From Nitrososphaeraceae archaeon (GTDB taxonomy: Archaea > Thermoproteota > Nitrososphaeria > Nitrososphaerales > Nitrososphaeraceae), in NCBI GenBank assembly GCA_035250975.1, contig DATFEP010000025.1, positions 1 to 64,000 of the forward strand: a stretch of DNA of 64,000 bases. The letters are read 5' to 3'. The position numbers and the translations under genes are program-made. Positions 1,302-19,490 of this stretch are shown piece after piece (the first letter of the stretch is position 1; the number at the start of each line of letters is the position of its first letter). Below the pieces are notes generated by a model. It did not search any database. It saw only the letters and a program-made list of their open reading frames with translations, and was not told the origin of the DNA.

Positions 1302-1573
1302 CTATTCGCGACTACTCATAACCAATTAAGTAATGTGTGACCAGTTACTTTCTAAATTTTATACAAGTTCTTACAAATTTTGATTTTTAATTGTGATATT
1401 AACAAATATTTTCTCATTCTCTTTTCTCTCTTTCCATTAACTGTTATGATATATTTAATTTACAAAAATAATAACAAAAAAAATACATTATATAAAAATT
1501 TCAATGAACTATATCGATCATGCAAATTAAAGAAAGGATTATTATCAAGGTTTTACTATACCTAAAATAATAA

Positions 1574-2083: not shown

Positions 2084-2153
2084 AATTTTTTGTAAAACTA
2101 GAATATATAAAGGAAATTAAAAAGAGTCTTATTTGGAGATTATATTATTAATA

Positions 2154-2172
2154 CGAGATTTGAACCCTTCGA
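2154..2172 (-). repeat. Short tRNA T-loop-like remnant (possible att scar)
   Basis: cgagatttgaacccttcga shares cgagatttgaac with 274-285 and gatttgaaccc with tRNA-Ala. Confidence 0.4.
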
Positions 2173-2257
2173 TAAAGTAGAACAGGTTACTTTTGAATAA
2201 ATTGTTTTCAAACTGTAAAAATTATTGTTTTCTATATACTTATTTGTATATAGATAT

Positions 2258-3202
2258 TTAATTTTTTGATTCAAGATAGTTTATGACATCCAAAGCAGCT
2301 TTGCAGCCAGAGCCTGCAGCTGTAACAGCTTGTCTATATCTATAATCATATACATCTCCTGCAACAAAAACCCCATCAATGTTAGTTTTACTTTCTTCAT
2401 ACTTTTTTACATAACCTCTTTCATCAAGTTCTATTTGTCCTTTGAACAAATCTGTATTGGGTTTATGGCCAATTGCAACAAATACTCCATCAATTTTGAT
2501 ATCCGATGTTTGTTCTGTAATTACATTTTTAACTCGTACACTTTCTACCTTATTATCACCAATTATATCCTCAATTATGGTATTCCAAAGAAAAGATATT
2601 TTCTCATTTCTAAATGCTTTCTGTTGCATTATCGCTGATGCATTTAATTTATTTCGTCTATGTATAACCATAACACTCTTTGTAAATTTTACCAAGAATA
2701 ATGCTTCTTCAATAGCAGTATCTCCACCACCAACTACTATAACATCTTTTCCTTTGAAGAAGAAACCATCACATGTAGCACATGACGAAACTCCTCTTCC
2801 TCTTAATCTTTGTTCGGATTCTAATCCCAGCCACACAGCTGAAGCTCCTGTAGCAATAATGACACAATCTGCGAAATATTCTTCAGTATTGTTATCAGTA
2901 CTATAGGAACATTTTATGCGAAATGGTTTTGATGAAAAATCAACAGATGAAATTGTATTATCTACAAACCGAGTTCCAAATCGCTCAGCCTGTTTTCTCA
3001 TTTTTTCCATTAAAATAGGACCTAGTATAGGTTCATCAAAACCTGGAAAATTCTCAACTTCTGTAGTATACATTAGCTGGCCACCTGGTTCACTCCCAGA
3101 AATAACTAAAGGTTCTACTCCGCCTCTTGCAGCATATATAGAAGCTGTTAATCCGGCAGGTCCAGAACCAATTCTTATGAGTTTATTATAGATACTCCTC
3201 AT
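2258..3202 (-). CDS. trxB: Thioredoxin-disulfide reductase
   Basis: IGSGPAG FAD motif, GGQL..TTEVENFPG, CATCDG active site, VVGGGDTA NADPH motif, GDV..RQAVTAAGSGC. Confidence 0.95.
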   Translation of the reverse strand: MRSIYNKLIRIGSGPAGLTASIYAARGGVEPLVISGSEPGGQLMYTTEVENFPGFDEPILGPILMEKMRKQAERFGTRFVDNTISSVDFSSKPFRIKCSYSTDNNTEEYFADCVIIATGASAVWLGLESEQRLRGRGVSSCATCDGFFFKGKDVIVVGGGDTAIEEALFLVKFTKSVMVIHRRNKLNASAIMQQKAFRNEKISFLWNTIIEDIIGDNKVESVRVKNVITEQTSDIKIDGVFVAIGHKPNTDLFKGQIELDERGYVKKYEESKTNIDGVFVAGDVYDYRYRQAVTAAGSGCKAALDVINYLESKN

Positions 3203-3470
3203 TACTATTAGTCCTCCTTTTGTTTTTGTTTTTAATTGTTATGAATATTTAAAATATTTGTAACAAGATTTTACATTTTATTTCTAATTGATTAGGTAAA
3301 GAAAGATTTGCAAGGTCATTGTTGTATTTGAATAAGTGAAATTATAAACACTGTATAGGACAAATATCAGTTATTTAATTTTATTGAGCAAATCTGAAAT
3401 GTGATACTACATTAATATGTATAAGCATATTGAAATAAAGAAATAAATAGAATCTATTTAAGAAAACATT

Positions 3471-4487
3471 ATGCAAAATAAAAAGACTACTGTAGTATTA
3501 ATTCAAAGTTATTTTCTATATATTTTTATGCTAATTGTAATTTCAGCTATTACCATAAATAATGTATTTGCTCAGCCACCTCAGAAAGTTATAAATGATA
3601 TAACAGAAGTTACAAATGACTCCATATTTACTACATTAAGAAAAGATGGAACAATATATAATTTAAAAGAGAATATAACTTTGCCTGCAGGAAAGGATAT
3701 GACATATGTTGATACAACAAAAGATGGGAAAGTTGTTGTTGCTACAAGTAGTGGAGAAAATCAAACCTTTATCTTTAATACTATTGATAATAGTCTAATT
3801 GCTAAAATAAAAGTTGGCGATGTTCCAAAAGGTATAAAGATATCACCTAATCAAAATTATGTCTTTGTTGCTAATGAGTTACCTGGAACTGTCAGCATAA
3901 TTAACTTCGAAAATTTAAGTATCATTAAGGAGATCCCTGTTGGTAAAGTACCTCATAATATTGTATTTTCACCTGATGGCTTAAAGGGATATGTAACAGT
4001 TCAAGGAGAAGATAAAATTGTTGTCATAGATACTGATAGTTTAGAAATAATAAATGAAATTCAAGATAGCAAAGGACCACACAATTTAGATATAACAAAT
4101 GATGGCAAACTGCTTTTTGTGGCCAATGCAGCATCAAATGATGTTGCAATTGTAAATACAACTTCATTTGAAATACTAAAGAAAATTCCAGTAAGTCTTG
4201 GACATCATGGTATAGATGTTTCACCCGATAATAAAAGAGTATATGTATCAGGGATAGGCTCAGACAAAGTAAATGTAATTGATGCAGAGAAACAACAACT
4301 TGTAAAACAAATAACTGTAGGTATTGGTCCTCATGGTATACGCACAAGTTCAAATGGAAATTATCTATTTGTAGATGTAACAACAACAAATGAGATTGTT
4401 GTGATAGATACTAATAGTTTAGAAATTATTTCTAGAATTCCAACTGGAAATGTTCCATTTTGGATGGCAGTATCTGGAAATAATTAA
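3471..4487 (+). CDS. Secreted YVTN/YncE-type beta-propeller protein
   Basis: Hydrophobic N-terminus ending VFA-Q; repeated ~42-aa blades (I.VG..P.GI.ISPD..YVFVAN..VSII). Confidence 0.9.
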   Translation: MQNKKTTVVLIQSYFLYIFMLIVISAITINNVFAQPPQKVINDITEVTNDSIFTTLRKDGTIYNLKENITLPAGKDMTYVDTTKDGKVVVATSSGENQTFIFNTIDNSLIAKIKVGDVPKGIKISPNQNYVFVANELPGTVSIINFENLSIIKEIPVGKVPHNIVFSPDGLKGYVTVQGEDKIVVIDTDSLEIINEIQDSKGPHNLDITNDGKLLFVANAASNDVAIVNTTSFEILKKIPVSLGHHGIDVSPDNKRVYVSGIGSDKVNVIDAEKQQLVKQITVGIGPHGIRTSSNGNYLFVDVTTTNEIVVIDTNSLEIISRIPTGNVPFWMAVSGNN

Positions 4488-4670
4488 TTTACCAAGTATT
4501 TTTGTTTCATAATCCATTTATTCATTTATTTTACTCTACATTGACCTTTATTACATGAGATACTATAATAGCAAAGATATATTTTCTATCATATTGAAAT
4601 CTGCTTTTACATCTATTTCAAAAAATTTACATAAATATTGAGATGGTATTAAATCTAACGAAATAACAAG

Positions 4671-5254
4671 ATGAAGAAGATCCTTATTTTAGGAGGAGGT
4701 ACTGCAGGTTTAATAGTTGCTAACAAATTAGCAAGAGAACTAAGAAAAGAAATAGCAAAGGATGAAATCGAAATTATCATTTTAGACAAATCAAATACTG
4801 CTATTAATAAAGCAGGTTTTACTTTTGTTCCTTTTGGTTATTTAACAGAACAGGATTTACTAAGAGATAAGAAGAGTCTGGTTAGTCCTAGAATAAAAAA
4901 AGCTATTTTTGGTGATGAAAAAGAGACGGTTAAACGAATTGATATAAAAAATAAAAAAGTTGTTACAGAAAACAATAATGAATTTTCATATGATTATTTA
5001 GTAATTGCAATGGGTTCTCGTCCTAATTTAACAAATGTAAATGGATTGTCAAAGAAGAAGGATTTTAATTCCTTTTATACTTCATATAATGATGCATTCA
5101 ATTTAGTACAAAAAATAAAGTCTTTTGAAAAAGGAGATATTATGATATTGGTAACAAATATGCCAATACCATGTCCTGGTGCACAAACAAAGTTTTCAAT
5201 TCTGCTTTCAGATTATCCAAAATATGTAAAAGATATTAAAATTAGAGAACAAAC
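4671..5254 (+). pseudogene. Sulfide:quinone oxidoreductase-like flavoprotein, 3'-truncated by IS6 (ORF runs to stop at 5270 inside the IS end)
   Basis: ILILGGGTAG FAD motif, YDYLVIAMG, PIPCPGA; about half the usual length; IS6 terminal repeat begins at 5255. Confidence 0.8.
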
Positions 5255-5985
5255 GGCTCTGTTAGTTTAAGCAGTAAAAGCTATAGCTAAAAACATCTTA
5301 TCTATTATAGCAAATTTTAAATTTGAAAGAAATAAAACATCTTCTTTTATTGTAATGTATTCTCTTTATTTGTACTCTCTTGGTCTCAGTCTACGAAATA
5401 CATCCAAGGCATTAGAACCTTTTAAGGACCAAAATAAAAGTCATGTTGCTGTTTGGAAATGGATTTAACGATTTGGTTCATTGCAGATCTATAACAAGGA
5501 TAGAAGAATTTGCGCATTCATAATCGATGATGAAACTATAATTCAGATTGGTAGTGAACATTTTTGGTTATGGATTTGTATTGAACCTGTTCATAAATGA
5601 TACTTGGAATCTATATTTCTGAAGAAAGAAACATGTTTGTAGCAGAAAATTTTATCAGATCGCTTGTATCAAGGTATGGAAAACACACAGTATACACAGA
5701 TGGTCGTACGTGGTATCCACAAGCATGTAACTTTTAAACCTAAAACACATATTGCATTCTCCTTTAGAGAAAAGTCGGATAGAAAGAGTAATGCAGTATT
5801 TCAAGGATAGAACAGAATGTTTTGATGATTACCATCCTTGTAATAATATTATACAAAATTGTCATATACAACATGTATACAATTGGATAAGATTATTCGT
5901 TTATCTATATAATGCAAAAATCAGAAACAAAATTATATTCGAAATTGGAGGTGAAATAATAGTCTTAACTTAACTTAACAGGACT
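5255..5985 (+). mobile_element. Degenerate IS6-family element (transposase pseudogene)
   Basis: Imperfect TIRs ggctctgttagtt (5255) and aacttaacaggact (5972-5985); broken frames give FERNKT..LGLSLRNTSKAL..SHVAVWKWI*, IIDDET..WLWICIEP, YTDG..WYPQAC, IERVMQYFKDRTECFDDY with stops and frameshifts. Confidence 0.88.
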
Positions 5986-6327
5986 CGTTTAATATACATT
6001 AAAATCACTAACTGCAAAGTATACTGGCATAACCTTTTATTTATTTTGTACCAACTGGATCCATCTGTATTTCCCTATGCTATCTGTGGCAAAAGATGAC
6101 AAAAAAAGAAATATTATAAATGGTTGAGATTCATATGCTAGTGATTTTAGGCTGGAATCAACTAGATAAATTAATTATGTATTACCAGTACTATTCTTGT
6201 AATTCAACATCTAATATGAACAACTACTATATTCTTTATCCATACTCTAATTATTAGGTATTTGTTGTTCTAGATCTATAATTTCACAATAATTCTTTTA
6301 TCAGGAAAAATAGTATATACTATATTT

Positions 6328-7110
6328 ATGTTTAAAATCAATAAATTTAGCAGAAATATCTTTGGTTTTCCTTATACAAAAGATTCTTTTATATTAAATA
6401 AAAATGTAGCAAGACAATACAAAGACAAAGAAGTTCTTGCTTATGTTAATCATCTTATTCCATCAAAAATTAAACAAGAGATAATAACAATAAGCAAAGA
6501 AAATAATAATAATATACAAATTTTAAAACCACTTCTTGATTGGTTTAAGCAAGATTATATGAAATGGATGGGTAGTAGCAACATCATCAGCAAAAACATC
6601 AAATGCCAAAATTGCAACATACCTTTGCATTTTAGGGTAATCAAAGGAAATTCCTGGAAGCTACGAATGAGTGAAGTTTATGAATGTCTGAATTGTAATT
6701 CAAAAATAGTATTTCCAAGATATGGCGAAATAAAAAGAATAGCAGATAGCAGAATAGGTAGATGCAGTGAATGGTCAATGCTGTTTGGGGCAATTTTAAA
6801 TTCACTTTTTGTGGAAACAAGAATTGTACAAGATTATCTAGATCATTGTTGGAATGAAACATTGATTGATGGCAAATGGATACATATTGATTCTACGTTA
6901 GCCTATCCTATCTCTTTAAACCATCCTCATTACTATGAGAAAAATTGGTCAAAGAAATACAAATACATTTTGGCTTTTTCCTATAATTCTGTAGATGATG
7001 TTACTTCTGCTTATACCAATGAATGGCAAGATGTACTAAAAAGAAGGAAACAAGATAATAAGAAGGAAATTATTATGGAATCTTTTAAAATTTTTTATAG
7101 AGAAATTTAA
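6328..7110 (+). CDS. Peptide:N-glycanase (Png1/NGLY1-like transglutaminase-fold protein)
   Basis: LLDWFKQDYMKW, two CxxC zinc motifs (CQNC, CLNC), FPRY, catalytic triad motifs GRCSEW / DHCWNE / WIHIDS, YILAF..DVTSAY. Confidence 0.88.
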   Translation: MFKINKFSRNIFGFPYTKDSFILNKNVARQYKDKEVLAYVNHLIPSKIKQEIITISKENNNNIQILKPLLDWFKQDYMKWMGSSNIISKNIKCQNCNIPLHFRVIKGNSWKLRMSEVYECLNCNSKIVFPRYGEIKRIADSRIGRCSEWSMLFGAILNSLFVETRIVQDYLDHCWNETLIDGKWIHIDSTLAYPISLNHPHYYEKNWSKKYKYILAFSYNSVDDVTSAYTNEWQDVLKRRKQDNKKEIIMESFKIFYREI

Positions 7111-7392
7111 ATGTTGGATATTGATTCTAAATTGTTGCAATCGAGCTATGTGTAACAGTAGATGTGGGTATGTTACGTTAATATATTTTTTATGATTGAA
7201 TACTTTAGTTAAAAACAACCAACGCATTTAAAGATAAAATTTGTAATTTTCCTTTTTTTATCGTAATTTTTATCCTTCATTAATCTCATTTCTCTTGTCT
7301 AAATAAATAAAATTGGGATCTGATTCTATTTTAAGATGGCGATATTTCAAATGGTTGACCATTAAATCTTTTTGTATATTAAATTCACCAAT

Positions 7393-7507
7393 ACCTTTCG
7401 CATTAAAAACGATGGACTGAACGGGTTCAATAGTAAAAAATTTTAAGCAATATAAAATAATAGAAAATTAAGCAAAAGTAATATTGAATATGAATAAAGT
7501 ATGAATA
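7393..7507 (-). repeat. Internal att-like scar plus TATGAATA repeats
   Basis: acctttcgcattaaaaacgatggactgaacggg aligns without gaps to 291-323 (26/33); similar A/T tract follows; tatgaata at 7489 and 7500. Confidence 0.7.
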
Positions 7508-7699
7508 ATATTAGACTAACATTAATTATTGTCTTCTGATAAATATAAAGATAGTAAAAGCATCCAGAATTTTTAATTGTAATAATAATATTAATAGTTA
7601 TTTTTACAGTTAAAGTATTTTTTCCTTCTTGTTCTTCACATTTTGAATGAAATTGAAAATTTTGACTGTTTAAGCTATTTTAAGAATTACTATTTTTCA

Positions 7700-9124
7700 T
7701 TATTGGACTAGATGACGCATTTCCTCATAAAAATCATCATCATCATTTTCATCAGAATCAGTGTGTCGAATCATGCTAATTTTATTTTTTTCCAAAGAGG
7801 GATCCAAATCTTCACTAATAAATTGATTTGTTGATATTGATGCTGAAGTTATATTGAATTCATTATTAGCTTCGATCATATTCTGAGATTTTGCTTGTGT
7901 GAGAGATGGTGAAACATCAAAGTTCTTCGCAGTGAGATTATTCTTTTCACTTTTATCTAAACTCATTTTGACCGAAATAATATCATTTTCATTTAAACCT
8001 TTATTGAGTAGATTTCTCAAGATAATTCCAGTTGAACCCTGTGATAAAAGTATTGATCTATTTTTCTGTACTTCATTTTCTAAATTAGATATCAAGTATT
8101 CGAGTGTTTCTATTTTGTTTTCCAAGGCTAAATTTTTTCCATAACTTGAAAGAATCTCAAAAAATCGTTGTTTTATTTCTAATGGACCAATTTTATATGC
8201 ATTTTCTGACCAAATTTTATTTAAAACCTGAATTAAAATTTCTAAGTCTTTACTATCAATACCCAATCTCTTGATTTTATCCAACGAATCTAAAAGCAAT
8301 GCTTCTGAACTCAATTTTTCTGAATATTGTGAATGTATATCTTTCATTGTCGCTATATCAGTCTTCAGAATAGCACGTGTCCTCTTGTTGGATTCAATTT
8401 CTTTGTCCAAATTTTCAAGTTCGTTAATCTTTTGTAAAGCTTCAAAAACCTCTTTATCAGTATGCTTTTTTATTGTTGCTACTGTTCTACATAGAAATGT
8501 TATATCATCTACCGGAAGTCCTTCCCTTTCTAAACCATCTTTAATATTTGCGTACCAATTTAATTCTGCAGATGTTACATCAATTTTTTTCTTCGTTAAA
8601 GCAAAATTTTGTTCAGCAGTATATTTAGCTTCTTCCTCTTTATGAATTTCCTCTTTAATTTTTTCAAGTCGATCTTCTAATGCCTCTTTCTCTTCGATTT
8701 TTCTCTGCAGATGTGATTTCATCTGTGATGGCAAAATATCTTTTGAGATCTTGATCATCTCCATGAGGATATCTTGAATAATGTGTGGGCTGATATCTAA
8801 CCGTGTACAAAAGTCATGGGCATCCTTGAGGAAAATTTGCAGTTTTTTTTCATCTTCGGAAATGCCTAAAGCATTAACAATGTTATGGATTCTATAGCCA
8901 AGTGCACATTCCTCCACACTAATTTTTTGTTTTCTTAAGTGTACAACAAATTCTCTAATGGATTCAATATCATAACTAGCCAAAGAATCTAAAAAAGTTT
9001 TCATTATGTTCGAGACGGAACCTGTGCTAATACCGCAATCGATTGCATTTTCGGTCCTACTCATTCCTTTGAGCCAATTCTGTCTTACTTTGAATGCGGT
9101 ATATGATTCGATTTTTTCTGTCAA
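7700..9124 (-). CDS. N-terminal HTH plus long coiled-coil protein (likely TTG start at 9124)
   Basis: WLKGMSRTENAIDCGISTGSVSNIMK HTH; E/K-rich heptads; TATA-like tttatatac ~25 nt upstream of the TTG. Confidence 0.75.
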   Translation of the reverse strand: MTEKIESYTAFKVRQNWLKGMSRTENAIDCGISTGSVSNIMKTFLDSLASYDIESIREFVVHLRKQKISVEECALGYRIHNIVNALGISEDEKKLQIFLKDAHDFCTRLDISPHIIQDILMEMIKISKDILPSQMKSHLQRKIEEKEALEDRLEKIKEEIHKEEEAKYTAEQNFALTKKKIDVTSAELNWYANIKDGLEREGLPVDDITFLCRTVATIKKHTDKEVFEALQKINELENLDKEIESNKRTRAILKTDIATMKDIHSQYSEKLSSEALLLDSLDKIKRLGIDSKDLEILIQVLNKIWSENAYKIGPLEIKQRFFEILSSYGKNLALENKIETLEYLISNLENEVQKNRSILLSQGSTGIILRNLLNKGLNENDIISVKMSLDKSEKNNLTAKNFDVSPSLTQAKSQNMIEANNEFNITSASISTNQFISEDLDPSLEKNKISMIRHTDSDENDDDDFYEEMRHLVQ

Positions 9125-9169
9125 ATCATAAACGTTATGTGAAAAAAAAGTATATAAAGCTCTGAGTGA

Positions 9170-9230
9170 GGTCAAGACAGCCACCAAGTGGTCATCTGAA
9201 AAGTCACTGTCGTCAAGTAATTGGTCAAGT
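9170..9230. promoter_or_regulatory. Cluster of GTCA(AG) motifs upstream of the HTH-coiled-coil gene
   Basis: gtca at 9171, 9191, 9203, 9212, 9224 (ggtcaag, tggtca, aagtca, cgtcaagt, tggtcaagt). Confidence 0.45.
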
Positions 9231-9440
9231 AGTATTATGCTTACTATAAAGGGGTATGTACAAAATATTTTAACAAATTTATTTTGAATCTAGGAAAGTC
9301 TGAAAATAGAACTATTAAAAATGATGATCCTTTTTGAAATTACTATTAATTTCAGTTATAGGAACTAAATAACATCTACTATTTGACATTACTTATAAAC
9401 TATATAACAATGGGACTAAATAAAGACACAGATCTGTAAT

Positions 9441-9466
9441 TGGACCAGTGGGATTTGAACCCTCGA
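9441..9466 (-). repeat. tRNA 3'-end fragment (att-like) downstream of the integrase
   Basis: tggaccagtgggatttgaaccctcga vs tRNA-Ala tggactgggcgggatttgaacccgcga. Confidence 0.7.
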
Positions 9467-9667
9467 TCAAAAGAAACAACATTATTACACATTCAAAAAA
9501 TATATCCTTTATTAAAATAATATAAGACAAAACAATACCAATAATTACAGAAAATATATTAAATAGAATGGACACTAAATCTTTTAAAGTTTAATAAACT
9601 ATATACATGATGTTTATAATTTTCTTAAAGTTGATTAATGTTAATCCCAAAATTATTCAATGCATTT

Positions 9668-10741
9668 TCATATTTTTCTGCTAACTTTTTTTGGATCATG
9701 TAATACATAATGTCTTCCAGACACTGAATTAAATCTTCCAGCGAGTACTTCTGCCTCATCTACACTTAACGTATCTCTGAACCGCATTACATTATAATGA
9801 ATTTTTCTCATTGCAATATATGCAATGCCAACGTCTCTTTTCATTATTTTATGTGTTGCAGAGATATCATTATAATCAAATTTTTGCAATGCTCTGAACT
9901 TTTTCCAATATGTTGTTGGAATGATTGTTGCTAATGCCTTTTTATTTCCTCTTGTCCAACCTATTGCTATTATTGTTAATCCATTTCTACAGTCAACTTT
10001 ATGAAGGCTATCACAATCACAACCATAACCATTGTCACAGATCTTTTTTTCTTTAATGTAAATTATCTCTCGTTCTCTTAGACCACATAATAAACCGAAT
10101 CTAGCTATAAAACCAATATCGCCAGGCATTTCAAAAATCCTTTTTACCTTTTCTTCAATAAAATTAGGACTTACAAGATAGATCTTATCTTTCATATCAA
10201 GATTTTTGTGTAGATCATACCTTTCAATAATTTGTCTTATTAATTGAATTACTTCTCTGTTGTTATATTTTCTAAGATAAAAATCACCAAATCTTTTTAC
10301 TGCTTGTAATATCCAAGATCTTTTATGAGGTTTTAGTTTGAACAATTCTACATCTGGATTTAAACTAAAAAATACATGGGCATATCGTTCAAAATAGCTA
10401 AGATAACATTTTGCAGTATGTTCATGATATTTACTTTTTAAATAGTTTAAAAAATCTTCAATATCAATTTGTTTGTAAAAATCATAAGGCTTGCCCGCTA
10501 GACCAGTAATTTGACCATTTGCTTGAAGGTTAGTTTTCATAATATCTATTTGTTGTTCATCTGTCAATCGTGTAATTTTTCCGGCAATAAGATCTTTAAC
10601 TAAATCACCTAATGTTGTATAACCAAGTCTATCTAGTTGTCTGTTTAAGTTAGATAATTCTGAGAATCTTACTTTTACACCTATAGTCTTCCATTCAGAC
10701 TTGATAATTTGTAAATCTTTGAAATTTATTTTGTTTGACAA
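9668..10741 (-). CDS. Tyrosine recombinase/integrase (SSV1-like catalytic domain) with N-terminal ribbon-helix-helix-like domain
   Basis: GLREREII (Arg), RGNKK (Lys), MRKIHY, LAGR..VSGRHY (Tyr); N-terminus KTIGVKV-helix-GYTTLGDLVKDLI; next to a tRNA. Confidence 0.8.
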   Translation of the reverse strand: MSNKINFKDLQIIKSEWKTIGVKVRFSELSNLNRQLDRLGYTTLGDLVKDLIAGKITRLTDEQQIDIMKTNLQANGQITGLAGKPYDFYKQIDIEDFLNYLKSKYHEHTAKCYLSYFERYAHVFFSLNPDVELFKLKPHKRSWILQAVKRFGDFYLRKYNNREVIQLIRQIIERYDLHKNLDMKDKIYLVSPNFIEEKVKRIFEMPGDIGFIARFGLLCGLREREIIYIKEKKICDNGYGCDCDSLHKVDCRNGLTIIAIGWTRGNKKALATIIPTTYWKKFRALQKFDYNDISATHKIMKRDVGIAYIAMRKIHYNVMRFRDTLSVDEAEVLAGRFNSVSGRHYVLHDPKKVSRKI

Positions 10742-10805
10742 CGATAATCTTGTTATTGTTGTTATCTATATTAAAATCTATATTTTAATATATATTTAAA
10801 TTTAT

Positions 10806-10994
10806 ATGTTAAAGAGATATGATAATAATATGTCTGCAATCTTTGAGGGAAAACTTGTCAAATGGGGTACATCAGTAGGAATAGCTATTCCAAAACCAAT
10901 TAGAGATGGAATGAAATTAAATGCTGGTGATAAAATTAGATTAATTTTGAATGAAAATAAATTATGTATAGAAAAAATAGAAAAAGAAGTCTGA
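10806..10994 (+). CDS. AbrB/MazE/SpoVT-family DNA-binding protein
   Basis: KLVKWGTSVGIAIPKPIRDGMKLNAGDKI swapped-hairpin signature. Confidence 0.88.
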   Translation: MLKRYDNNMSAIFEGKLVKWGTSVGIAIPKPIRDGMKLNAGDKIRLILNENKLCIEKIEKEV

Positions 10995-11025
10995 TTTCAT
11001 TTATTAACTAATTATCAATTACTTT

Positions 11026-11175
11026 ATGTTAACATGAAAAATATCCATGTTACCATACTCTTTGGAATGTTAACATTTTTGCAACTTTTTTAATAGCTAA
11101 ATATTAATTATGTTAACAAAAATGTTACCATAAATTGTAATTTAGCAATAATTAGATTAAAAAATTTGTTAACAT
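11026..11175. repeat. Six copies of near-palindromic ATGTTA(A/C)CAT
   Basis: Copies start at 11026, 11047, 11067, 11110, 11122, 11166. Confidence 0.8.
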
Positions 11176-11225
11176 CCTTCATTTTTGAGAACAAAATCTA
11201 TCGAAACCTTTCAATTCAAGAGCGA

Positions 11226-11298
11226 TGGACTGGGCGGGATTTGAACCCGCGACCTTTCGGATGCGAACCGAACATTACTACCACTGAACTACCAGCCC
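11226..11298 (-). tRNA. tRNA-Ala(CGC)
   Basis: GGGCTGG/CCAGTCC acceptor stem with G3:U70, A73, anticodon arm TTCGG-TTCGCAT-CCGAA, T-loop TTCAAAT. Confidence 0.95.
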
Positions 11299-11516
11299 TT
11301 GGGTTCCTTATTAATTTTTAAAGAATAATAAGTATTACCAGAGCTAAATATAGTTTAAATAAAAGTTCAATTTTATTTTATTTCGCAAAAAACAGAAAAT
11401 AGATATATATATAATAAAAAAATATTTCTATTTTTTTTATAAAATGATTATGGAAAATAAATTCCTTTTATTTATTATATCTTGATACTGGGATTTCTTC
11501 AATAATAAAATCTGGG

Positions 11517-11530
11517 AAAAACATTATATA
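11517..11530 (+). promoter_or_regulatory. Putative BRE/TATA box of nirK
   Basis: aaaaacattatata ending ~24 nt before the ATG at 11554. Confidence 0.5.
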
Positions 11531-11553
11531 GGAATAATTGAACTTGTCAAACA

Positions 11554-13155
11554 ATGAAACTACTCTTAACCGGGATACTGATGGGTGTTCTAGTAGCTGG
11601 GCTTTTCATAGGCCCAATGTCTATTGGGATACCATTAGTTCAAAAAGTGATGGCTCAGGAAGAGGATGAGGATCAAGGACCAGTAAAACAAGTATTATTG
11701 ATTGCAAATGAACATCCACTAAAAATTGCTCCAGATAACATATTACATCCAGGCGGAATTGAATATGCCGCAATGACGTTCAACGGAACAATTCCAGCAC
11801 CAATGATTGCTGGTGATGTAGGAGATGTTCTAAATATTACTATTAGAAATGACGGTAAAGTTATACATAGTCTAGACTTTCATGCAGGAATAGGACCAAG
11901 CAACGTTTTGTCAGGAAATATTCAACCAGGTCAATCTAAACATGTAACCCTACATGCCAATACTCCAGGTGCATTCATGTACCATTGTGGTGCTGATGCA
12001 TTGAATGGTGTGTGGGAACACATTGCTAATGGAATGTACGGTGCTGTAGTAATACATCCAGAGGAAGAAGAGCCAGCGAAAGAATTCTATGTATCATTTG
12101 GTGAAAACTATAATTCCGCAGATCAAGGTTTATTTAAGGGAACTGGTGGAAAAGTTGGGACTTTTGACATTGGTAAATTTGCTACTGAACAACCAGACCT
12201 TATATTGACAAACGGAATGGCTCACAAATATGTACCAAGTGTAGGTGAAACAGCAAAAATAGTACTTAACGAAAATCCTGAAATATTTAAAGTCACACCA
12301 GGAGATCTAACTAGATGGTATATTTTGAATCCAGGTCCAAATGGGGGCGTAGCTTTCCACTTTATAGCAGGTCAGATGACTGTAAGAGATGGTCAAAATG
12401 AAGCAGGTGATAACTATGGAACACAAGATATAATGGATGAAACATGGTGGGTACCTCCAGGTTCTGCATCTGTATTTGAGGCAACATTCCCAGAAGCAGG
12501 TACTTATGTAGCTGTTGACCACAACATGAATCATGTAGTAAGAGGGGCTGCATTTGCAGTAGTAGCAGATGCCAATTCAACAGAGACCGATCATCCAGTT
12601 GGAACAGCAGTTGCTCCACAGGGAAGTGAGAGTGCAGTTGCATCGTGGAATCAACCATACGTAATGAAAGAAGCAGCGAAACTTACACAAGCTAGTACAA
12701 CTTCCGAAGCAGCTACAGCAGCTAATGCAACCACAGCAGCTATACAAAATGCTACACTAGTCCCAGAAGCATTTGCACAGGATATGATGGGAAACGAGAC
12801 TGGTATGATGGGAAATGATACTACTATGATGATGAATGCAACACTTGCATTTGCACAAGAAGAAGCAAAACAAGTAATATCCATCGTACAAGGTTCTTCT
12901 AACCCAAGCAATGCAGAATTCTTTTCTCCGACTACCGTAACGGTAAGTCCGGGAACAGAAGTGGAATGGACGAATGATGACGCAACTATTCATACTGTCG
13001 TACAAGGTAGCGCTGAGGCTCCAGTAGAAGGAGGATTTGATTCTTCAATCATAAATGCAGGAGACTCTTGGGAACACACATTTGACACTGCAGGCACATT
13101 TGACTACTACTGTAATCTACATCCCTTCATGAAGGGTACGGTAACAGTAGCCTAA
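11554..13155 (+). CDS. nirK: Copper-containing nitrite reductase with fused C-terminal cupredoxin (plastocyanin-like) domain
   Basis: Signal peptide; HSLDFH, YHC..EHIANGM, FHFIAG, VDHNMNH copper/catalytic motifs; C-terminal WTNDDATIHTV..YYCNLHPFMKG type-1 Cu site. Confidence 0.92.
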   Translation: MKLLLTGILMGVLVAGLFIGPMSIGIPLVQKVMAQEEDEDQGPVKQVLLIANEHPLKIAPDNILHPGGIEYAAMTFNGTIPAPMIAGDVGDVLNITIRNDGKVIHSLDFHAGIGPSNVLSGNIQPGQSKHVTLHANTPGAFMYHCGADALNGVWEHIANGMYGAVVIHPEEEEPAKEFYVSFGENYNSADQGLFKGTGGKVGTFDIGKFATEQPDLILTNGMAHKYVPSVGETAKIVLNENPEIFKVTPGDLTRWYILNPGPNGGVAFHFIAGQMTVRDGQNEAGDNYGTQDIMDETWWVPPGSASVFEATFPEAGTYVAVDHNMNHVVRGAAFAVVADANSTETDHPVGTAVAPQGSESAVASWNQPYVMKEAAKLTQASTTSEAATAANATTAAIQNATLVPEAFAQDMMGNETGMMGNDTTMMMNATLAFAQEEAKQVISIVQGSSNPSNAEFFSPTTVTVSPGTEVEWTNDDATIHTVVQGSAEAPVEGGFDSSIINAGDSWEHTFDTAGTFDYYCNLHPFMKGTVTVA

Positions 13156-13173
13156 CTCTTTTTTCTTTTTTTT
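13156..13173 (+). terminator. Oligo-T terminator after nirK
   Basis: ctcttttttctttttttt immediately after the stop codon. Confidence 0.55.
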
Positions 13174-13346
13174 AAAATAAATAACGTTTTTTGAAAATCA
13201 CCTGCATTTTATATCTGAGTAAATTTTCTATTTACTAATATTTAAAAAGCTAAAAAATTTAGTTTTATTTCGTATCGCACTTTCAATGATATGTGATAGT
13301 AAGATAATTATTGTTATTTGAATCTCATGCATTTCATAGATACTAA

Positions 13347-14849
13347 ATGCAAAATTCTTGTGATCTAGTGATAAAAAATGGGAATGTTGTTATACCAAAA
13401 GTTGGGATTATTCAAACAAATATACTTATTGAGAATGGAAAGATAAAGAATCTTTCAAAAAATATTGACGATATTTCTAGTGACAAAATTCTGGACGCAT
13501 CAAAGAAATTCATACTTCCAGGATTGATAGACCCTCATGTCCATTACGGGGTTTACACGCCTATTGAAAATGCTGCAACAACAGAGTCAAGGTCAGCAGC
13601 AATAGGTGGAATTACTACAGTTATCAGGATGCTTAGATTAGATTCGCAATATCGAGAGAGCATATCAGAACAGTTAGAGGCGAGTGCTAAAAGTCACTAC
13701 ATAGATTATACAGTACATCCCTCGATTCTAATGACCGATCATCTTGATGATGTCTCGTATCTGTACAAAAAAGTTGGAATAAATTCCTTTAAATTATATA
13801 TGAATTTGGGGTCAGGTCTTAATCATATTCACATGGATTTAAATCCTAACGAGGAAAATGTTAGAAGTGGACACGTAAATATAACAGACGAATTTCTTGA
13901 AAAGATCGTGAAAACTACAACACATGATTTCAATGGGACTTTATTGGTGCATGCAGAAGACCCACAGATATGTTATAATTTGATAAAAAACAATATAGTC
14001 AATAAAAAACAGCAGGGTAGGAAGAAGAAGAAGGAAACAAAAAATTATACTAACAAGACTAATGAAAATATAACCAGTATAAAAGAAAATAAAAAACCAA
14101 ATCTTCTTGAGATCTGGTCTAAATGTAGACCTTATGAATCTGAGGTAAAGAGCATAAAAAAGATATCAAGCCTTGCTAGGAAATATAAATCGAACATATA
14201 TTTTGTTCATATTGGTTCCAGTACTGCAATCGATGCTATACTAGAGGAAAGAGAGTTGGGTGGTTGTAATCTTTACATGGAAACCTGTCCTCACTATTTA
14301 ACACATAGTTATGAATATGCCAATTTAAGGGGAAAGGTTGTACCGCCACTAAGATCCAAACATGATGTTCAAAGTGTATGGTATGCATTAAGAAATGGAA
14401 TTATAGACACAATAGGAACCGATCATGTTGCAAACAGATTATCACTAAAAATCGTTGATGATGACTTGTTAAACTCGCTGGCAGGTTTCCCGGGACTTGC
14501 TACAATGCTTCCTGTATTGTTAAGTGAAGGTGTAAATAAGGGAAGGATTAATTTGGAAAGGGTTTGTGAAGTCACAAGCTATAATACCTCAAGAATCTTC
14601 AATATTTTTCCACAGAAAGGGTCAATTCAAGCAGGCTCTGATGCTGACCTTGTGATAGTTGATCTGGATCTAAGGAAGAAGGTTACTCCTGAACTGTTGC
14701 AGTCATACTCTGACTATACAATATATGATGGATGGGAATTTCAAGGATGGCCAGTAGCCACAATATGTAGGGGAAAAGTTATTGCAGAAAATTCTGTCGT
14801 GAATGATGACTGTCATGGACATGGAAAGTTCATAGCGCGTTTTATGTGA
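13347..14849 (+). CDS. Cyclic amidohydrolase (dihydroorotase/allantoinase/dihydropyrimidinase family)
   Basis: PGLIDPHVH, SAAIGGITT, VHAED, ETCPHYL, IGTDH, GSDADLVI. Confidence 0.88.
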   Translation: MQNSCDLVIKNGNVVIPKVGIIQTNILIENGKIKNLSKNIDDISSDKILDASKKFILPGLIDPHVHYGVYTPIENAATTESRSAAIGGITTVIRMLRLDSQYRESISEQLEASAKSHYIDYTVHPSILMTDHLDDVSYLYKKVGINSFKLYMNLGSGLNHIHMDLNPNEENVRSGHVNITDEFLEKIVKTTTHDFNGTLLVHAEDPQICYNLIKNNIVNKKQQGRKKKKETKNYTNKTNENITSIKENKKPNLLEIWSKCRPYESEVKSIKKISSLARKYKSNIYFVHIGSSTAIDAILEERELGGCNLYMETCPHYLTHSYEYANLRGKVVPPLRSKHDVQSVWYALRNGIIDTIGTDHVANRLSLKIVDDDLLNSLAGFPGLATMLPVLLSEGVNKGRINLERVCEVTSYNTSRIFNIFPQKGSIQAGSDADLVIVDLDLRKKVTPELLQSYSDYTIYDGWEFQGWPVATICRGKVIAENSVVNDDCHGHGKFIARFM

Positions 14850-14948
14850 CTAGCTGGTGGTAAATTCTTTCAATAATTTCTTTTAATTGTTTACTAATTT
14901 GATATTCAATTTTTTTACTGTATTTCATGCGAACACATTTATTCTGGT

Positions 14949-15833
14949 TCAACTTGTTCTGGTAGAAAAAGATCCATCAGAGTTTACACAGTAATAAGTA
15001 GTATTTTTAGTACTAGAAAATATTCCGACCTCAATCACTCCTGGGATGCTCTTAATTTTATTTTCAAGTGCTGCAATATCGTATTTTTTCATCAAATTTT
15101 TAAATTCTGTGTCAAGGATAAAGTTTCCATTTTCTGTGATGAATGGATATCCTTTTTTCAAAAACCTTATTTTGGGATACCCACCAATCTCGTCAAGTTT
15201 TTTTGTAACCTCAACCCTGCCAAAAGGATGAACCTCTATTGGTATTGGTAAGGAAAAAGTGGGAACAAATTTCTGTGAATCTGCAAGTATTACCTTTTGC
15301 TTTGCTGAATACATTAGTATCTTTTCTTTAAACAATGCTCCACCTCCACCCTTTATCATATTTAGTTTTTCATCTATTTGATCTGCGCCATCAATTACAA
15401 GGTCTATTTCATTGATTCTCGATTCGTCTAAAAATCTTAAACCGCATTGTTCCGCAACCATTTTTATTTGATAGGAAGTGGGTATCCATCCAAATTTCTC
15501 TTTTCCATCAAGTTCTGCAATCCTTTCAACAAGTAACGCTACCGTACTCCCACTTCCTAAACCAATGACTACATCTTCTTTATCGTTATCATCAACACTT
15601 TCGTAATTGTCTTTTTCTTTCGATTTGAGATATTCATTTCGTTTTATAAAATTGATGAAAAACTTTTCAATGATGTCATCTAGCGCTAAATTATAGTAAC
15701 TATTTCTGATATTGGTTTCCTCCGTTCGATTGCTGTTTAAACGGTTAATATCGTTACCAGAATTGTCAATATTAGTATACATATCACCATCTTTATCGTT
15801 ATCCTTTTTAATTTGTTCATAACTATCTTTCAA
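14949..15833 (-). CDS. rpiA: Ribose-5-phosphate isomerase A
   Basis: GLGSGST, DGADQID, IKGGGGALFKEK, TENGNFILD, IPGVIEVGIF. Confidence 0.95.
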   Translation of the reverse strand: MKDSYEQIKKDNDKDGDMYTNIDNSGNDINRLNSNRTEETNIRNSYYNLALDDIIEKFFINFIKRNEYLKSKEKDNYESVDDNDKEDVVIGLGSGSTVALLVERIAELDGKEKFGWIPTSYQIKMVAEQCGLRFLDESRINEIDLVIDGADQIDEKLNMIKGGGGALFKEKILMYSAKQKVILADSQKFVPTFSLPIPIEVHPFGRVEVTKKLDEIGGYPKIRFLKKGYPFITENGNFILDTEFKNLMKKYDIAALENKIKSIPGVIEVGIFSSTKNTTYYCVNSDGSFSTRTS

Positions 15834-15971
15834 TATCTTTAAGATTCGCTAAATTGCTATTAGATATATAACGTTTTATCGACTATCCATATATTTTGAT
15901 TTAAGTCGTTTAATAGTCAAAATAATCGAATTCTTTTAATAAGTAACATTTTCATACTAATTTGTAACGCA

Positions 15972-16385
15972 ATGTTCAGTAAAATCGGATCTGTTATTTT
16001 ATTGGTGGAAGACATGGAACGTTCTTTTGAATTCTATTCTAAAGTACTGGGGTTAAAAACAAAGACAAAGTCCCCCGATTGGATCGAGTTTTTCGATAAA
16101 GGAACTACTCTTGCTCTGCATCCAAGAAAAAGAAAGCTGGAAAAGGAAAATTATCAATATTCTAATATTAATATCTTGGTCGGATTTATGGTAGGTGACC
16201 TAGACAATCTGGTATCGGATCTTCGTACAAAAAACATCAGCTTTTTTAAAGAACCTAAACAAGAACCATTTGGTAAACATACCATAATAACTGATCCTGA
16301 TGGATATTTGATTTCTATTGCTGAAATAACATCTAAAGAAACAACCGAAGAATTTGACTTGATAGGTTTCTTAGGTGCAGAATAA
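15972..16385 (+). CDS. VOC/glyoxalase family protein
   Basis: LLVEDMERSFEFYSKVLG, EPFGK..ITDPDGYLI. Confidence 0.88.
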   Translation: MFSKIGSVILLVEDMERSFEFYSKVLGLKTKTKSPDWIEFFDKGTTLALHPRKRKLEKENYQYSNINILVGFMVGDLDNLVSDLRTKNISFFKEPKQEPFGKHTIITDPDGYLISIAEITSKETTEEFDLIGFLGAE

Positions 16386-16540
16386 TAAATAATAAATAAT
16401 AAGTAGATCACTCTTTTTCTATTTAGCCTAATACGATATTTACTAGTTATCTAATTTTTGTGATCTGATATAACAAAAAGTTACACATTATGTTTTCGTT
16501 TCTGTATCTTCTCTTTATCTGACAGACTTTTTTTAGAAAA

Positions 16541-17800
16541 TTACTTTTTATGAAGTATTTTTAATATGTTTCCCAATGGATTTCGGCTTTCTTTTGTCTC
16601 TTTCTCTTTCTGTTTTACTTGTTGATTGGTCTCTTTTTTCAATTCCTTTACACTTTCTGCCTCTTGTGTTGAGAAAAACGACGCTAAAGGAAATCTGTTT
16701 TTGCCACTTTCTTGGCCTCTTTTATAGCCTTCCTTATCCGGTTCATTTGTACTTACCAAGTCAGTTGATACTTTAATATCTTGATTTTTGGCATTTTCAT
16801 ATGTATCCAATAAAACATCTTCATCTTTTTTAGCATCATTTGATCTGTTGACATCAATATTGAACAATCCATAATGCGCTGTTTTTTGTTCATGGATTTC
16901 TTGTCTGTTATTACTATCATTGATCTTGTTATAAGATTCTATGTTATTATCCATTTGATCTTCTATTGGTTTTGTATAGTCAAGCCGATCTAAAGCAACC
17001 ATGACCTTCTCTTTTATTTCCTCAATCCTTTTTTTGTCGTCAGAGTCTTCGATGTTGCTGCCATCATATCTGGTTCTAATTGTTTTATCTGATATGTAAT
17101 CTACTAATTCTCTAGATCCTAAGATACCATCATCGATTCGGTCGTTTGGATATCTTGAATTTTGTGAGGTTTTGTCATTTTCTTTTGTATTAGTTTTGTC
17201 AGCTGAAGTGGTGCTGTAGTTGCTGTTATTTTTCGTGATGTTAAACTGGTTGTTTTCATCGATCTTTATGCCAGTTACAGGTCCAAATTTTTTATTGATC
17301 TCTATTATCTTGTCGTCTATCTGACCGATTTTTGTTTCTAGCAAGTTCATAAAATCGTTTCTGAGGTTGACTAATTTTGTGATATCTATCTCCGATTGCA
17401 TCCTTTCCATGTTTTCATTAAGAGATCTTAATTGATCTTTGTATTTTATAAGCAACCTATCTCTTTCAAAATGATCTATATTGTTCTCTCTAGATGAAAC
17501 CAAAATATTTTCAATAGCGCGTGTAACAAGGTCTTTTTCAAACTGATACAATTTTACCTCATCTTCTAATACCTGTTCGTTCTTTTTCAATATGGTTTGG
17601 CCATCATTAGCATTATTTTCTAATTGTTGTAATTGTTTTTTGTTACCGAAGCTGTTACTACTCTGAGAAAAAATATGAGTAAGGGATCTAGAGGTTCTCA
17701 ATCTTTGTTTTATCTGGCTAAAAAAAATTCCGAAAACAGTTCCAAAAATAATTGATAATCCAGCTATGATTATAAGATATAGATCAACTGCAATTAACAT
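16541..17800 (-). CDS. Membrane-anchored coiled-coil hypothetical protein
   Basis: N-terminal TM helix, heptad region, low-complexity tail; 419-aa ORF. Confidence 0.7.
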   Translation of the reverse strand: MLIAVDLYLIIIAGLSIIFGTVFGIFFSQIKQRLRTSRSLTHIFSQSSNSFGNKKQLQQLENNANDGQTILKKNEQVLEDEVKLYQFEKDLVTRAIENILVSSRENNIDHFERDRLLIKYKDQLRSLNENMERMQSEIDITKLVNLRNDFMNLLETKIGQIDDKIIEINKKFGPVTGIKIDENNQFNITKNNSNYSTTSADKTNTKENDKTSQNSRYPNDRIDDGILGSRELVDYISDKTIRTRYDGSNIEDSDDKKRIEEIKEKVMVALDRLDYTKPIEDQMDNNIESYNKINDSNNRQEIHEQKTAHYGLFNIDVNRSNDAKKDEDVLLDTYENAKNQDIKVSTDLVSTNEPDKEGYKRGQESGKNRFPLASFFSTQEAESVKELKKETNQQVKQKEKETKESRNPLGNILKILHKK

Positions 17801-17922
17801 ACTATCGACACTACTCTTACAGATCTATAATGATATGTTTATTTAAAATAATCCATTCAATATAGCCTATCTGATTTATGTATTTACTAAAATTTATAAT
17901 TAAAAATTATAAAATGAATATA

Positions 17923-18093
17923 TTAAAGAACCTGTCTTTTAATCCAGTTATACTTTCTCATTTTTGGATCAGGATACCCACACTTTGAACATTCTTTTCC
18001 TCGCTTATGAAATGAGTTATGACCGCATCTTCTACATCTAATATGGACTTTCTTTCGGGTATATTTTCCCATTGAAGTTGTTCCTTTTGTCAT
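17923..18093 (-). CDS. rpl37e: 50S ribosomal protein L37e (not in ORF track)
   Basis: Translates to [56 protein letters not shown]; follows Lsm as is typical in archaea. Confidence 0.95.
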
Positions 18094-18152
18094 TCCTTAA
18101 TTTTACCCCCTTTATTGTGTAAAATATAATTTATAATATTTATACCACTCTA

Positions 18153-18383
18153 TTATGATGGTGGTGGAGAAATAATGACTACATTATCTCCTCTTACAAC
18201 TATAGTACCTAAATCTACCGATTTTCCTTCGTCTAAAATCTCAACGGAGTCATCGAGCAACAAATTCATATGTTGATCGAATCCATGAAGGACCCCTCGA
18301 ATTACCTTTCCTCCCTTTAATTTTATCAATACAATCTTTCCAAAACTTTCATCCAAAACCTTAACGGCCATATCAATTGACAA
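18153..18383 (-). CDS. Sm-like archaeal protein (Lsm)
   Basis: Sm1 GVLHGFDQHMNLLL and Sm2 VVRGDNV motifs. Confidence 0.95.
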   Translation of the reverse strand: MSIDMAVKVLDESFGKIVLIKLKGGKVIRGVLHGFDQHMNLLLDDSVEILDEGKSVDLGTIVVRGDNVVIISPPPS

Positions 18384-18530
18384 TACTAAATCTACCTGTT
18401 ACTAAGGAATGAATCATAGTTATATATTAAAATTTCACTAGGTTGCTTTTTAGTTTAAATCAATCATGAAAACTTATTTTTTTCAAAAATACTGAAATTC
18501 ATAAGTAATATTGTTTATTTTTTCGCCAGA

Positions 18531-19346: not shown

Positions 19347-19490
19347 TTTGGTAATTGTTATCTGACACTTGTATTATTTAGATTTAGTATATTCTAATCG
19401 AATAATTTTGTTATGTAACTCTGATATCCTATCTGTCATTAAATGCGAGAAATATGATAATTTTTCTTTTTATGTTTTTTGTGATTTTTT

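Follow-up and report, generated by a model that had tools for sequence, protein, structure and literature searches.

A tRNA-associated integrase with a predicted ribbon-helix-helix domain at the head of a putative tandem array of decaying integrated elements in a Nitrososphaeraceae archaeon

Results

Next to a tRNA-Ala(CGC) gene of a Nitrososphaeraceae archaeon lies a short span of DNA (9441-11252) with a tyrosine integrase gene, a divergent gene for an AbrB-fold protein and an array of palindromic sites. The stretch analysed here, the window, is the first 64 kb (64,000 nucleotides) of contig C12 of a genome of 2.49 Mb in 91 contigs with a G+C content of 30.6%. We consider it probable that the span represents the integration module of a tandem array of cryptic integrated elements, which is mosaic and decaying and has its tRNA-proximal (attL) end here, and that its integrase employs a heterobivalent-type mechanism. 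An initial annotation had described the same DNA as a minimal 1.8-kb element between two tRNA copies. This description was not supported, since tRNA-Ala(CGC) is not what the distal repeat copies and better att junctions are located at 7427 and 325.

The integrase would work like a heterobivalent (lambda-type) integrase. Its core-binding and catalytic domains would recombine a core of approximately 15-23 bp at the tRNA gene's 3' end, and a dimer of its N-terminal ribbon-helix-helix (RHH) domain would read one 8-bp palindromic arm site via the strand residues 19, 21 and 23, contacts that would help to build the intasome. In one clade of the family, termed type A, the AbrB-fold protein would add a layer of regulation, as a directionality factor or by repressing the divergent promoters. 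For the family as a whole, we give an even chance to the proposal that these are archaeal heterobivalent integrases which gained their arm-binding domain independently of bacteria, that three strand residues of an RHH dimer choose the 8-bp palindrome, that this pairing switched repeatedly at fixed spacing, and that one clade added an AbrB-fold directionality or regulatory partner.

Domain structure of the integrase

The integrase gene (9668-10741, minus strand) comprises 357 codons and encodes a three-domain tyrosine integrase with an RHH-like domain (residues 14-52), a core-binding domain (approximately 90-185) and a catalytic domain (approximately 186-357). The protein matches PF16795 with 25.1 bits, which is below the gathering cut-off of 27, and many homologues carry a precomputed match to this family. 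A PHROG integrase match was obtained with an E-value of 5.7e-08, and NCBIfam contained no family for the protein. When a profile of 36 family members was compared with all PDB sequences, no recombinase match was found at E ≤ 1, so the fold had to come from structure. In a full-length AlphaFold model based on a 36-row alignment (pLDDT 79.5), residues 186-357 matched the catalytic domain of SSV1 Int with a Z score of 11.3 (rmsd 2.9 Å, 135 aligned residues), and residues 90-357 matched archaeal XerA with a Z score of 11.2. The structure search returned 45 chains with Z ≥ 8, all of which were tyrosine recombinases or their relatives among the matches listed. According to the model, the integrase has a tyrosine-recombinase fold, as initially annotated.

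The residues R222, K267, H297, R312, H315, R336 and Y345 are invariant in the 36 sequences and represent, from the alignment only, a candidate R-K-H-R-H/W pentad and tyrosine, with Y345 as the putative nucleophile. An invariant C-x5-C-x-C-x3-H insertion (C235, C241, C243 and H247; approximately 10001-10039 in the window) follows R222 and may form a zinc knuckle. The word 'zinc' does not occur in the accessible text of a review on archaeal tyrosine recombinases (PMC8371274).

The N-terminal 72 residues were furthermore modelled alone (pLDDT 78.6). The prediction contains an extended strand (residues 17-25 in full-length numbering) and two helices (26-38 and 44-52), and this strand-helix-helix order is not the three-strand-plus-helix arm-binding fold of Pfam clan CL0081. 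In a search of 48,161 chains, the top matches were RelB, MazE, KacA, ParD, PcfF, NikR, DinJ and MatP at low Z scores (best 4.0). The 21 best chains, among them RelB, ParD, NikR and DinJ, are what we take to be RHH-fold proteins. Foldseek gave nothing below an E-value of 0.74 for the same model. As a homodimer, the domain scored 0.52 compared to 0.00 for the best control, and the strands pair antiparallel around G21 in the least-error contacts. Of 30 proteins whose solved structures are pairs of one chain, 20 reached the mark for a dimer, as did 1 of 23 whose structures are single chains. The dimer runs, which used a custom alignment with one row from the unpublished genome G035, have no less than 87% of contacts in common, with a partner pLDDT of 73 or more. 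The N-terminal domain is predicted to be an RHH dimer; the RHH-like module of the initial annotation is retained as a predicted strand-helix-helix unit whose model forms an antiparallel-ribbon dimer and has RHH proteins, at low Z scores, as its nearest solved folds.

Covariation of a palindrome array with the strand residues

Six 8-bp palindromic sites, TGTTAACA or TGGTAACA, start at 11027, 11048, 11068, 11111, 11123 and 11167 (span 11027-11174) and are proposed to be arm-type sites. The six-copy array that had been noticed initially is real: ATGTTAMCA occurs at six places in 11026-11175, which account for 8 of the 10 matches in the window (both strands counted), with 2.11 matches expected for the whole window. 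The six sites hold their position in five type-A loci of two genera, and the DNA between them drifts. Lineages at tRNA-Ala carry five to seven copies of an 8-bp palindrome at approximately 52, 96, 108, 151, 171 and 192 from the tRNA end. In the clade at tRNA-Gly(CCC), about five palindromes lie at approximately 26, 38, 70, 90 and 111, and an array is present in 8 of 10 loci.

The palindrome sequence differs between lineages, with TCTTAAGA, TGCTAGCA and GTTGAC among the arrays of other lineages, and it changes together with the strand residues 19, 21 and 23, with or without an AbrB gene. Across 28 rows, TG(K/R) accompanies GTTAAC nine times and GGTAAC once, STR accompanies GTCAAC eight times, in three clades, SGS is found with CTTAAG three times and NAK with GCTAGC twice. 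The combinations ANK with GGAACC, NNK with TGGAAG, VAR with GTAAAC and TSR with GTAGAC occur once each. Rows with no tRNA or no clear array (L005, L022, L093, L094, L091 and L100) were left out, as were L096 (strand unreadable), partial genes and the unpublished L008. In a tree of residues 60-357, which leaves out the N-terminal domain (quick search on 35 rows, stars on 15 of 32 inner branches), the STR class and the TG(K/R) class are each spread over at least three clades. Independent pairs changed the same way in 4 of 4 cases (p = 0.125) and in five to six of 6 cases (p = 0.03-0.06), and never the opposite way. This covariation backs the idea, already raised from the sequence of the window, that the RHH domain binds arm sites, which we regard as putative.

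The AbrB gene and the divergent intergenic region

The AbrB/MazE-fold gene (10806-10994, plus strand) has 62 codons and matches PF04014 with 31.3 bits (cut-off 24.7) and TIGR01439 with 28.4 bits (cut-off 28.3). Its likely start is the ATG at 10830, because the matches of relatives begin there. Between 10994 and the tRNA gene, no open reading frame (ORF) of at least 40 amino acids was found apart from one overlapping the tRNA, and thus no toxin partner, which confirms the divergent AbrB/SpoVT gene without downstream toxin that had been annotated. All eight type-A loci with available upstream DNA contain an AbrB/MazE-fold gene divergent from the integrase, namely those of the window, G012, G059, G031, G060, G138 (degenerate) and, with an unlike variant, G055 and G018. 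This variant matches PF04014 with 25.4 and 27.6 bits, respectively, and shares 10 of 22 residues with the window protein; identical TGTTAACA arrays accompany both of these very different AbrB variants. In lineages other than type A, only 176-430 nt lie between tRNA and integrase, except in L021 (629 nt) and in L047, in which a type-C integrase intervenes, and no AbrB gene is present. The expected co-occurrence of integrase and AbrB gene was found in all eight of these type-A loci and is confined to this one clade.

Since the AbrB gene occurs in one clade only and arrays occur in all clades, its product is unlikely to bind the array. The N-terminal domain of the integrase appears to be the better candidate for an array reader, as the same array is found with both AbrB variants and arrays also exist without AbrB. 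The AbrB protein may instead act on the divergent promoter region. In the intergenic region (10742-10805), as read from the sequence, two copies of ATCTATAT lie 12 bp apart (10764-10771 and 10776-10783) and form a possible operator; relatives carry similar TCTATA repeats in this region.

The integrase family and its tRNA targets

Within the family Nitrososphaeraceae, we compared 201 genomes, of which 114 are of good quality. Integrase matches were found in 69 of the 201 and in 44 of the 114 genomes, a tally that includes three unpublished genomes; many of the matches are fragments with stops, with up to ten pieces in some genomes. A protein search gave 200 proteins at E ≤ 0.001, which are mostly 370-385 amino acids long and unsplit among the matches listed. 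More than 100 full-length homologues exist, and close homologues are assigned to Nitrososphaeraceae by database source labels. Nineteen of 40 integrase loci are beside tRNA-Ala(CGC), 10 are beside tRNA-Gly(CCC), 3 beside a tRNA 3' fragment, and 8 have no tRNA in the available DNA; in one of these 8, the tRNA lies just outside the piece fetched. Altogether, 33 of the 40 loci adjoin one of these two tRNAs or a tRNA 3' fragment. Homologues are thus tRNA-linked, as had been anticipated, with the tRNA end 176-795 nt upstream of an unsplit integrase gene in 32 of the 40 loci. The clade at tRNA-Gly(CCC) comprises ten genomes (L088-L091 and L097-L102), and its integrases are 32-37% identical to that of the window. 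The family is widespread and frequently pseudogenised; its site specificity is for tRNA-Ala(CGC), and a distant clade resides at tRNA-Gly(CCC).

The gene stays intact after integration and att lies outside it, which is the arrangement of type II integrases; an attP inside the integrase ORF that would split the gene, as in type I, was not found in these loci, and there is no tRNA-Ala-like stretch within the ORF at 9668-10741. The unsplit gene, which had appeared puzzling for an SSV-type integrase in the initial annotation, is hence the rule, as the gene of this family is never split in the loci examined. The gene had further been called continuous. The ORF is indeed unsplit and free of a tRNA fragment, and a one-base frameshift removes the conserved tail. 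One extra base in a 7-base run (9686-9692), absent from 5 of 5 aligned type-A relatives, displaces the conserved C-terminal tail (..KYxxAWxNFG.., here ..KKLAEKYENALNNFGININQL) to another frame at 9625-9690 (whole feature 9625-9692, minus strand).

An assembly error was considered as the cause of the frameshift. For this and the comparisons below, contigs assembled from sequencing runs were used instead of raw reads, and parts uncovered in runs X2, X4 and X7 are uninformative. Run X1 is probably the source sample of the window genome, and run X4 derives from soil of another study. A Logan contig of X1, which is not independent, has the same 7-base run and no differences over 7000-9773. Contigs one base shorter at the frameshift region occur in X1, X2 and X4. 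Because the C-terminal tail was lost by the frameshift and the distal att copy has decayed, the window copy of the integrase is probably immobile. In another genome, a 79%-identical type-A integrase (L048; G055:C20, 3269-3424) has its first approximately 38 residues in another frame, a break at the opposite end of the gene.

att junctions and tandem arrangement

The tRNA-Ala(CGC) gene (11226-11298, minus strand) is intact (Rfam 61.4 bits). Its last 15 nt (11226-11240) are the att core, which recurs at 311-325 with one mismatch and at 7413-7427 with three. These junctions were found by aligning the DNA that follows tRNA-Ala in relatives, which drew in positions 120-360 of the window. The first 33 nt of the tRNA-proximal arm (11193-11225, minus strand; TCGCTCTT..GAAAGGTTTCG..) are common to type-A and type-B elements and to the att copies. 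The decayed junction at 7393-7513 (minus strand) consists of an arm start (7393-7412), the core (7413-7427) and a distal arm (7428-7513) homologous to 326-409. The third junction (146-409, minus strand) consists of this distal arm (326-409), the core (311-325) and a type-B arm remnant with TCTTAAGA sites (146-310), which runs off towards the contig start. Positions 283-310 repeat the 24-28 nt that follow tRNA-Ala(CGC), so that 283-325 aligns with the tRNA end and arm start; 7393-7427 aligns in the same way and is more decayed. The outer flanks 326-409 and 7428-7513 show 72% likeness over 123 nt. Contig C54 of the same genome contains a fourth junction of like build, with a distal arm, an exact 15-nt core, a type-A arm and the first TGTTAACA at +52, and tRNA-end remnants of 17-23 nt precede integrases in other genomes (L004, L053 and L013). 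An integrase and direct repeats at a tRNA 3' end, by which thaumarchaeal integrated elements are recognised, are both present, with three core copies and homologous flanks.

Based on the better junctions at 7393-7427 and 283-325, we read the region as a mosaic tandem array of approximately 11 kb that is headed by the tRNA gene and has an integrase-bearing unit of approximately 3.8 kb (7428-11225). The putative order is the tRNA, the unit 7428-11225, a junction, 326-7392, a second junction and the type-B arm remnant up to the contig start. Pairs of TATGAATA adjoin two of the att copies; this motif was dropped, since its 10 occurrences in the window show no enrichment over the 10.28 expected. 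The junction on contig C54 lies at 26100-26420, and about 23 kb away a pseudogenised integrase is convergent with a pseudogenised copy of a 495-codon gene described below (49512-51526).

The tRNA-like fragment at 9441-9469

The distal repeat of the initial annotation is a T-arm and acceptor fragment (9441-9469, minus strand). Positions 9450-9466 are identical to 11236-11252 at 16 of 17 nt, and a 19-nt pattern with up to three mismatches occurs at three places in the window, with none expected from shuffled sequences. For these two reasons the fragment is considered tRNA-derived. The likeness is limited to the T-arm core, and the acceptor part is unlike tRNA-Ala(CGC). When compared with the 3'-terminal 40 nt of each of the 32 tRNAs identified by ARAGORN in the genome, the fragment reached 46 with tRNA-Arg(GCG), 44 with tRNA-Ala(GGC) and 32 with the adjacent tRNA-Ala(CGC), which ranks joint 11th. 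Of the two tRNA 3' copies that had been described, the second is therefore derived from a tRNA and not a copy of the neighbouring one. The third place of the pattern (22390-22408) falls in an intron-bearing tRNA at 22260-22419, which ARAGORN reports only with introns allowed and calls tRNA-Tyr with the anticodon ata. A tRNA-like piece as a regular feature upstream of the 495-codon gene was also considered and dropped, since it is present in 2 of 9 usable upstream regions; DNA likeness among the loci of this gene ends approximately 30-85 nt upstream of it.

Accessory DNA and chromosomal surroundings

The second module of the 3.8-kb unit is a 495-codon gene (7700-9187, minus strand) for a helix-turn-helix (HTH) and coiled-coil protein of a multi-copy family. 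In a protein atlas the protein is listed as 'hypothetical', HTH_23 is found in 13-40% of the members, and only Nitrososphaerota have this family. The start of the gene (approximately 9165-9230) contains five to six direct repeats of TTGAC(C/G), one approximately every 11 bp. Such repeats are also present at the starts of homologues on contigs C54, C80 and C87 and in the loci L024, L025, L027 and L029, even at 25-30% identity, and appear iteron- or operator-like. By-eye comparison placed members of the family within approximately 2 kb of integrase pieces at no fewer than eight places in five genomes.

Between the two att junctions, an ORF and homology survey identified low-GC accessory DNA without an integrase (410-7392). 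It contains genes for HTH, CBS, thioredoxin-reductase-like, beta-propeller and transglutaminase-like proteins and a highly repeated 0.7-kb element (5250-5975). Sequences of approximately 0.6-0.7 kb related to the latter occur in dozens of copies at 70-90% identity in G012, G026, G048 and G078, and it looks like a non-autonomous repeat or a sequence derived from an insertion sequence (IS) element. The transglutaminase-like gene (PF01841, 6189-7249) is 95% identical to two copies in G078, one of which adjoins a gene of the 495-codon family and the other of which is near integrase pieces; it seems to be mobile cargo.

The G+C content is 27-30% over positions 1-11,400 and 31-37% over the next 16 kb (11,400-28,000). 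A multicopper-oxidase gene adjoins tRNA-Ala(CGC) in 12 of 12 loci of the genus and is assigned to the host backbone. The DNA on the other side, after the tRNA, varies with element type, also between closely related strains. In G012 (locus L039), the multicopper-oxidase linker (12768-12860 in the window) is present three times in tandem, which indicates that linker length is variable.

Metagenome contigs

Contigs of run X1 reproduce the window. One X4 contig (depth 3.65) joins 9380 to 11193 and is missing 9381-11192 (1812 nt). Beyond the joint it follows the arm for 33 nt and the tRNA end for 21 nt and then becomes unlike the window, so that its shorter side has 54 letters. This contig represents an att remnant beside the upstream DNA of the 495-codon gene. 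The joint is 60 nt and 33 nt away from the two tRNA-like repeats and has no shared letters. A second X4 contig (depth 4.34) leads from the array (11106) back into the distal arm (7450), which a circle or tandem junction of the 3.8-kb unit would give. Both joints are single low-depth contigs and are leads only, pointing to an integrase module that may be separable, present or absent as one block with its ends away from the tRNA-like repeats, and to an arm at 7428-7513 that may belong with the type-A array. An X7 contig (depth 10.1) skips 570 nt (10622-11193), from the N-terminal region of the integrase to the arm start, and represents another rearranged form.

Discussion

Three other explanations were weighed. 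That the array does not take part in a recombination complex and is simply an operator, with the RHH domain autoregulating the integrase promoter or the AbrB protein binding the array, is in our view unlikely, though the least unlikely of the three. RHH and AbrB proteins are classically repressors, and where a lineage lacks AbrB, the array is found immediately upstream of the integrase start, as an operator would be. In type-A loci, however, the array and the integrase promoter have a whole gene between them, and the offsets of the sites are fixed to the tRNA end and not to the gene start. Moreover, most lineages with an array lack AbrB, and two unlike AbrB variants share one palindrome. We attach clearly less weight to a self-contained 1.8-kb element in tRNA-Ala, made up of array, AbrB and integrase and bounded by the tRNA 3' end and a displaced copy at 9441-9469. 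The fragment's acceptor part, which differs from tRNA-Ala(CGC), and the ten other tRNAs of the genome that score higher speak against it, and so does the observation that clear att remnants of the family keep the last 15-23 nt of the tRNA exactly or nearly. Nor does the X4 joint coincide with the repeats, and the homology of the distal arm that is present beside 7427 and 325 is absent beside 9441-9469. This element would nevertheless account for a 16/17 repeat where chance expects none and for type-A homology that stops right after the integrase stop codon, as expected of a conserved module of about this size, and the DNA skipped by the one X4 contig of depth 3.65 holds exactly the array, AbrB and the integrase.

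A chromosomal recombinase that was domesticated and stays next to tRNA-Ala to serve the host, with att copies that are unrelated repeats, can be considered highly improbable. It would be consistent with the same chromosomal place in many genera and with the lack of a second att copy within 5-15 kb downstream in most relatives. A gene kept for the host is difficult to reconcile with matches in only 69 of 201 genomes, many of them fragments with stops in up to ten pieces, with a frameshifted copy in the window, and with closely related strains that differ in the DNA after the tRNA.

Several observations weigh against the proposed attL-end integration module and its heterobivalent mechanism. Regarding the element, the X4 contig without just 9381-11192 is compatible with a 1.8-kb module that is separable. 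The core on which the 3.8-kb unit rests is decayed, with three mismatches in 15. The gene 3' of the integrase is not conserved: nothing is shared after the stop codon among six type-A loci, and the 495-codon gene was not found after the integrase in 10 longer loci of relatives. A second 15-nt core within 5-15 kb downstream was not found in 9 of 10 integrase loci of relatives; the tenth (G026) has one weak match with two mismatches. Regarding the N-terminal domain, its Z scores (4.0 at most) are in a range that the tool rates uninformative by itself, a Pfam search with seven N-terminal pieces (E ≤ 10) gave chance-level matches only and no RHH or arm-binding family, and the dimer score may reflect likeness to the many solved RHH dimers, which is likeness and not binding. 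Regarding the covariation, the sign tests are weak (p = 0.125 and 0.03-0.06), L092 breaks the pairing rule (TG(K/R) with TTACGT, once), and the positions 19, 21 and 23 were fixed after seeing the data, by analogy with RHH proteins. As the array adjoins the DNA coding for the N-terminal domain, joint inheritance or cassette exchange could give covariation without contact.

The element itself is ordinary; ammonia-oxidising archaea are known to carry small cryptic integrated elements at their tRNA genes. The notable part is the integrase family, and the idea of an RHH domain that binds arm sites is worth following. If true, this domain would be a convergent solution to the arm-binding domains of bacteria, and the family would offer a natural table of strand residues and arm-site sequences, so that specificity would be directly testable by swaps of three residues or 8 bp. 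Furthermore, the arrays at tRNA-Ala(CGC) and tRNA-Gly(CCC) mark att arms even without an integrase and could help to annotate integrated elements of Nitrososphaeraceae.

Thaumarchaeal integrated elements have att sites with a median of 17 bp, and elements of archaea and bacteria that carry tyrosine recombinases were noted to re-use one site in tandem (Krupovic et al. 2019, PMC6563490). The unit described here resembles cryptic elements of that survey such as the 2.6-kb NitUzo-E2, which are small, carry an integrase and reside at a tRNA 3' end with a short att (approximately 15 bp in our case), and it likewise contains few genes, among them one for an HTH protein that may serve in replication or regulation (PMC6563490). 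Unlike these elements, it is decayed and part of a tandem mosaic. Four supplementary files of that study, available as text, have no instance of 'tRNA-Ala' and a single one of tRNA-Gly, as (GCC). Nothing was found in the literature on a Nitrososphaera integrase at tRNA-Ala, a search in which most subscription journals were outside the scope.

Among archaeal integrases, the catalytic domain of SSV1 Int (type I, 'suicidal') is the best local structural match, and the match to PF16795, although weak, points in the same direction. In contrast to SSV1-type integrases, att lies outside a gene that is never split in the loci examined, the PF16795 match stays below the cut-off, and XerA matches equally well. 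The arrangement is that of type II archaeal integrases with pNOB8 as the paradigm, in which the gene is intact after integration into a tRNA target (PMC8371274). The accessible text of this review uses 'arm' once, with respect to lambda Int, contains neither 'RHH' nor 'heterobivalent', and names only the SNJ2 cofactors in its section on helper proteins. An archaeal fusion of an integrase with an RHH or arm-binding domain was found neither there nor in the full-text literature, most subscription journals again being outside the scope.

The proposed mode of recognition has a parallel in MetJ, an RHH dimer on tandem 8-bp palindromic met boxes. MetJ is a free-standing repressor, whereas the RHH-like domain described here belongs to a recombinase. 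In bacteria, arm-binding domains share one fold (three strands and a helix, Pfam clan CL0081) and one origin, and are held to be the step by which regulated integrases arose from simple recombinases (Smyshlyaev et al. 2021, PMC8138268). The integrase of the window is similar to lambda Int and Tn916 Int in that an extra N-terminal DNA-binding domain, here a predicted one, precedes the core-binding and catalytic domains (PMC8138268). It shares with heterobivalent integrases repeated accessory sites on the att arm, a target at the tRNA 3' end and, in one clade, a small partner gene beside the integrase gene. It differs from them in its predicted dimeric RHH domain and in its palindromic arm sites, each of which would be bound by two protomers.

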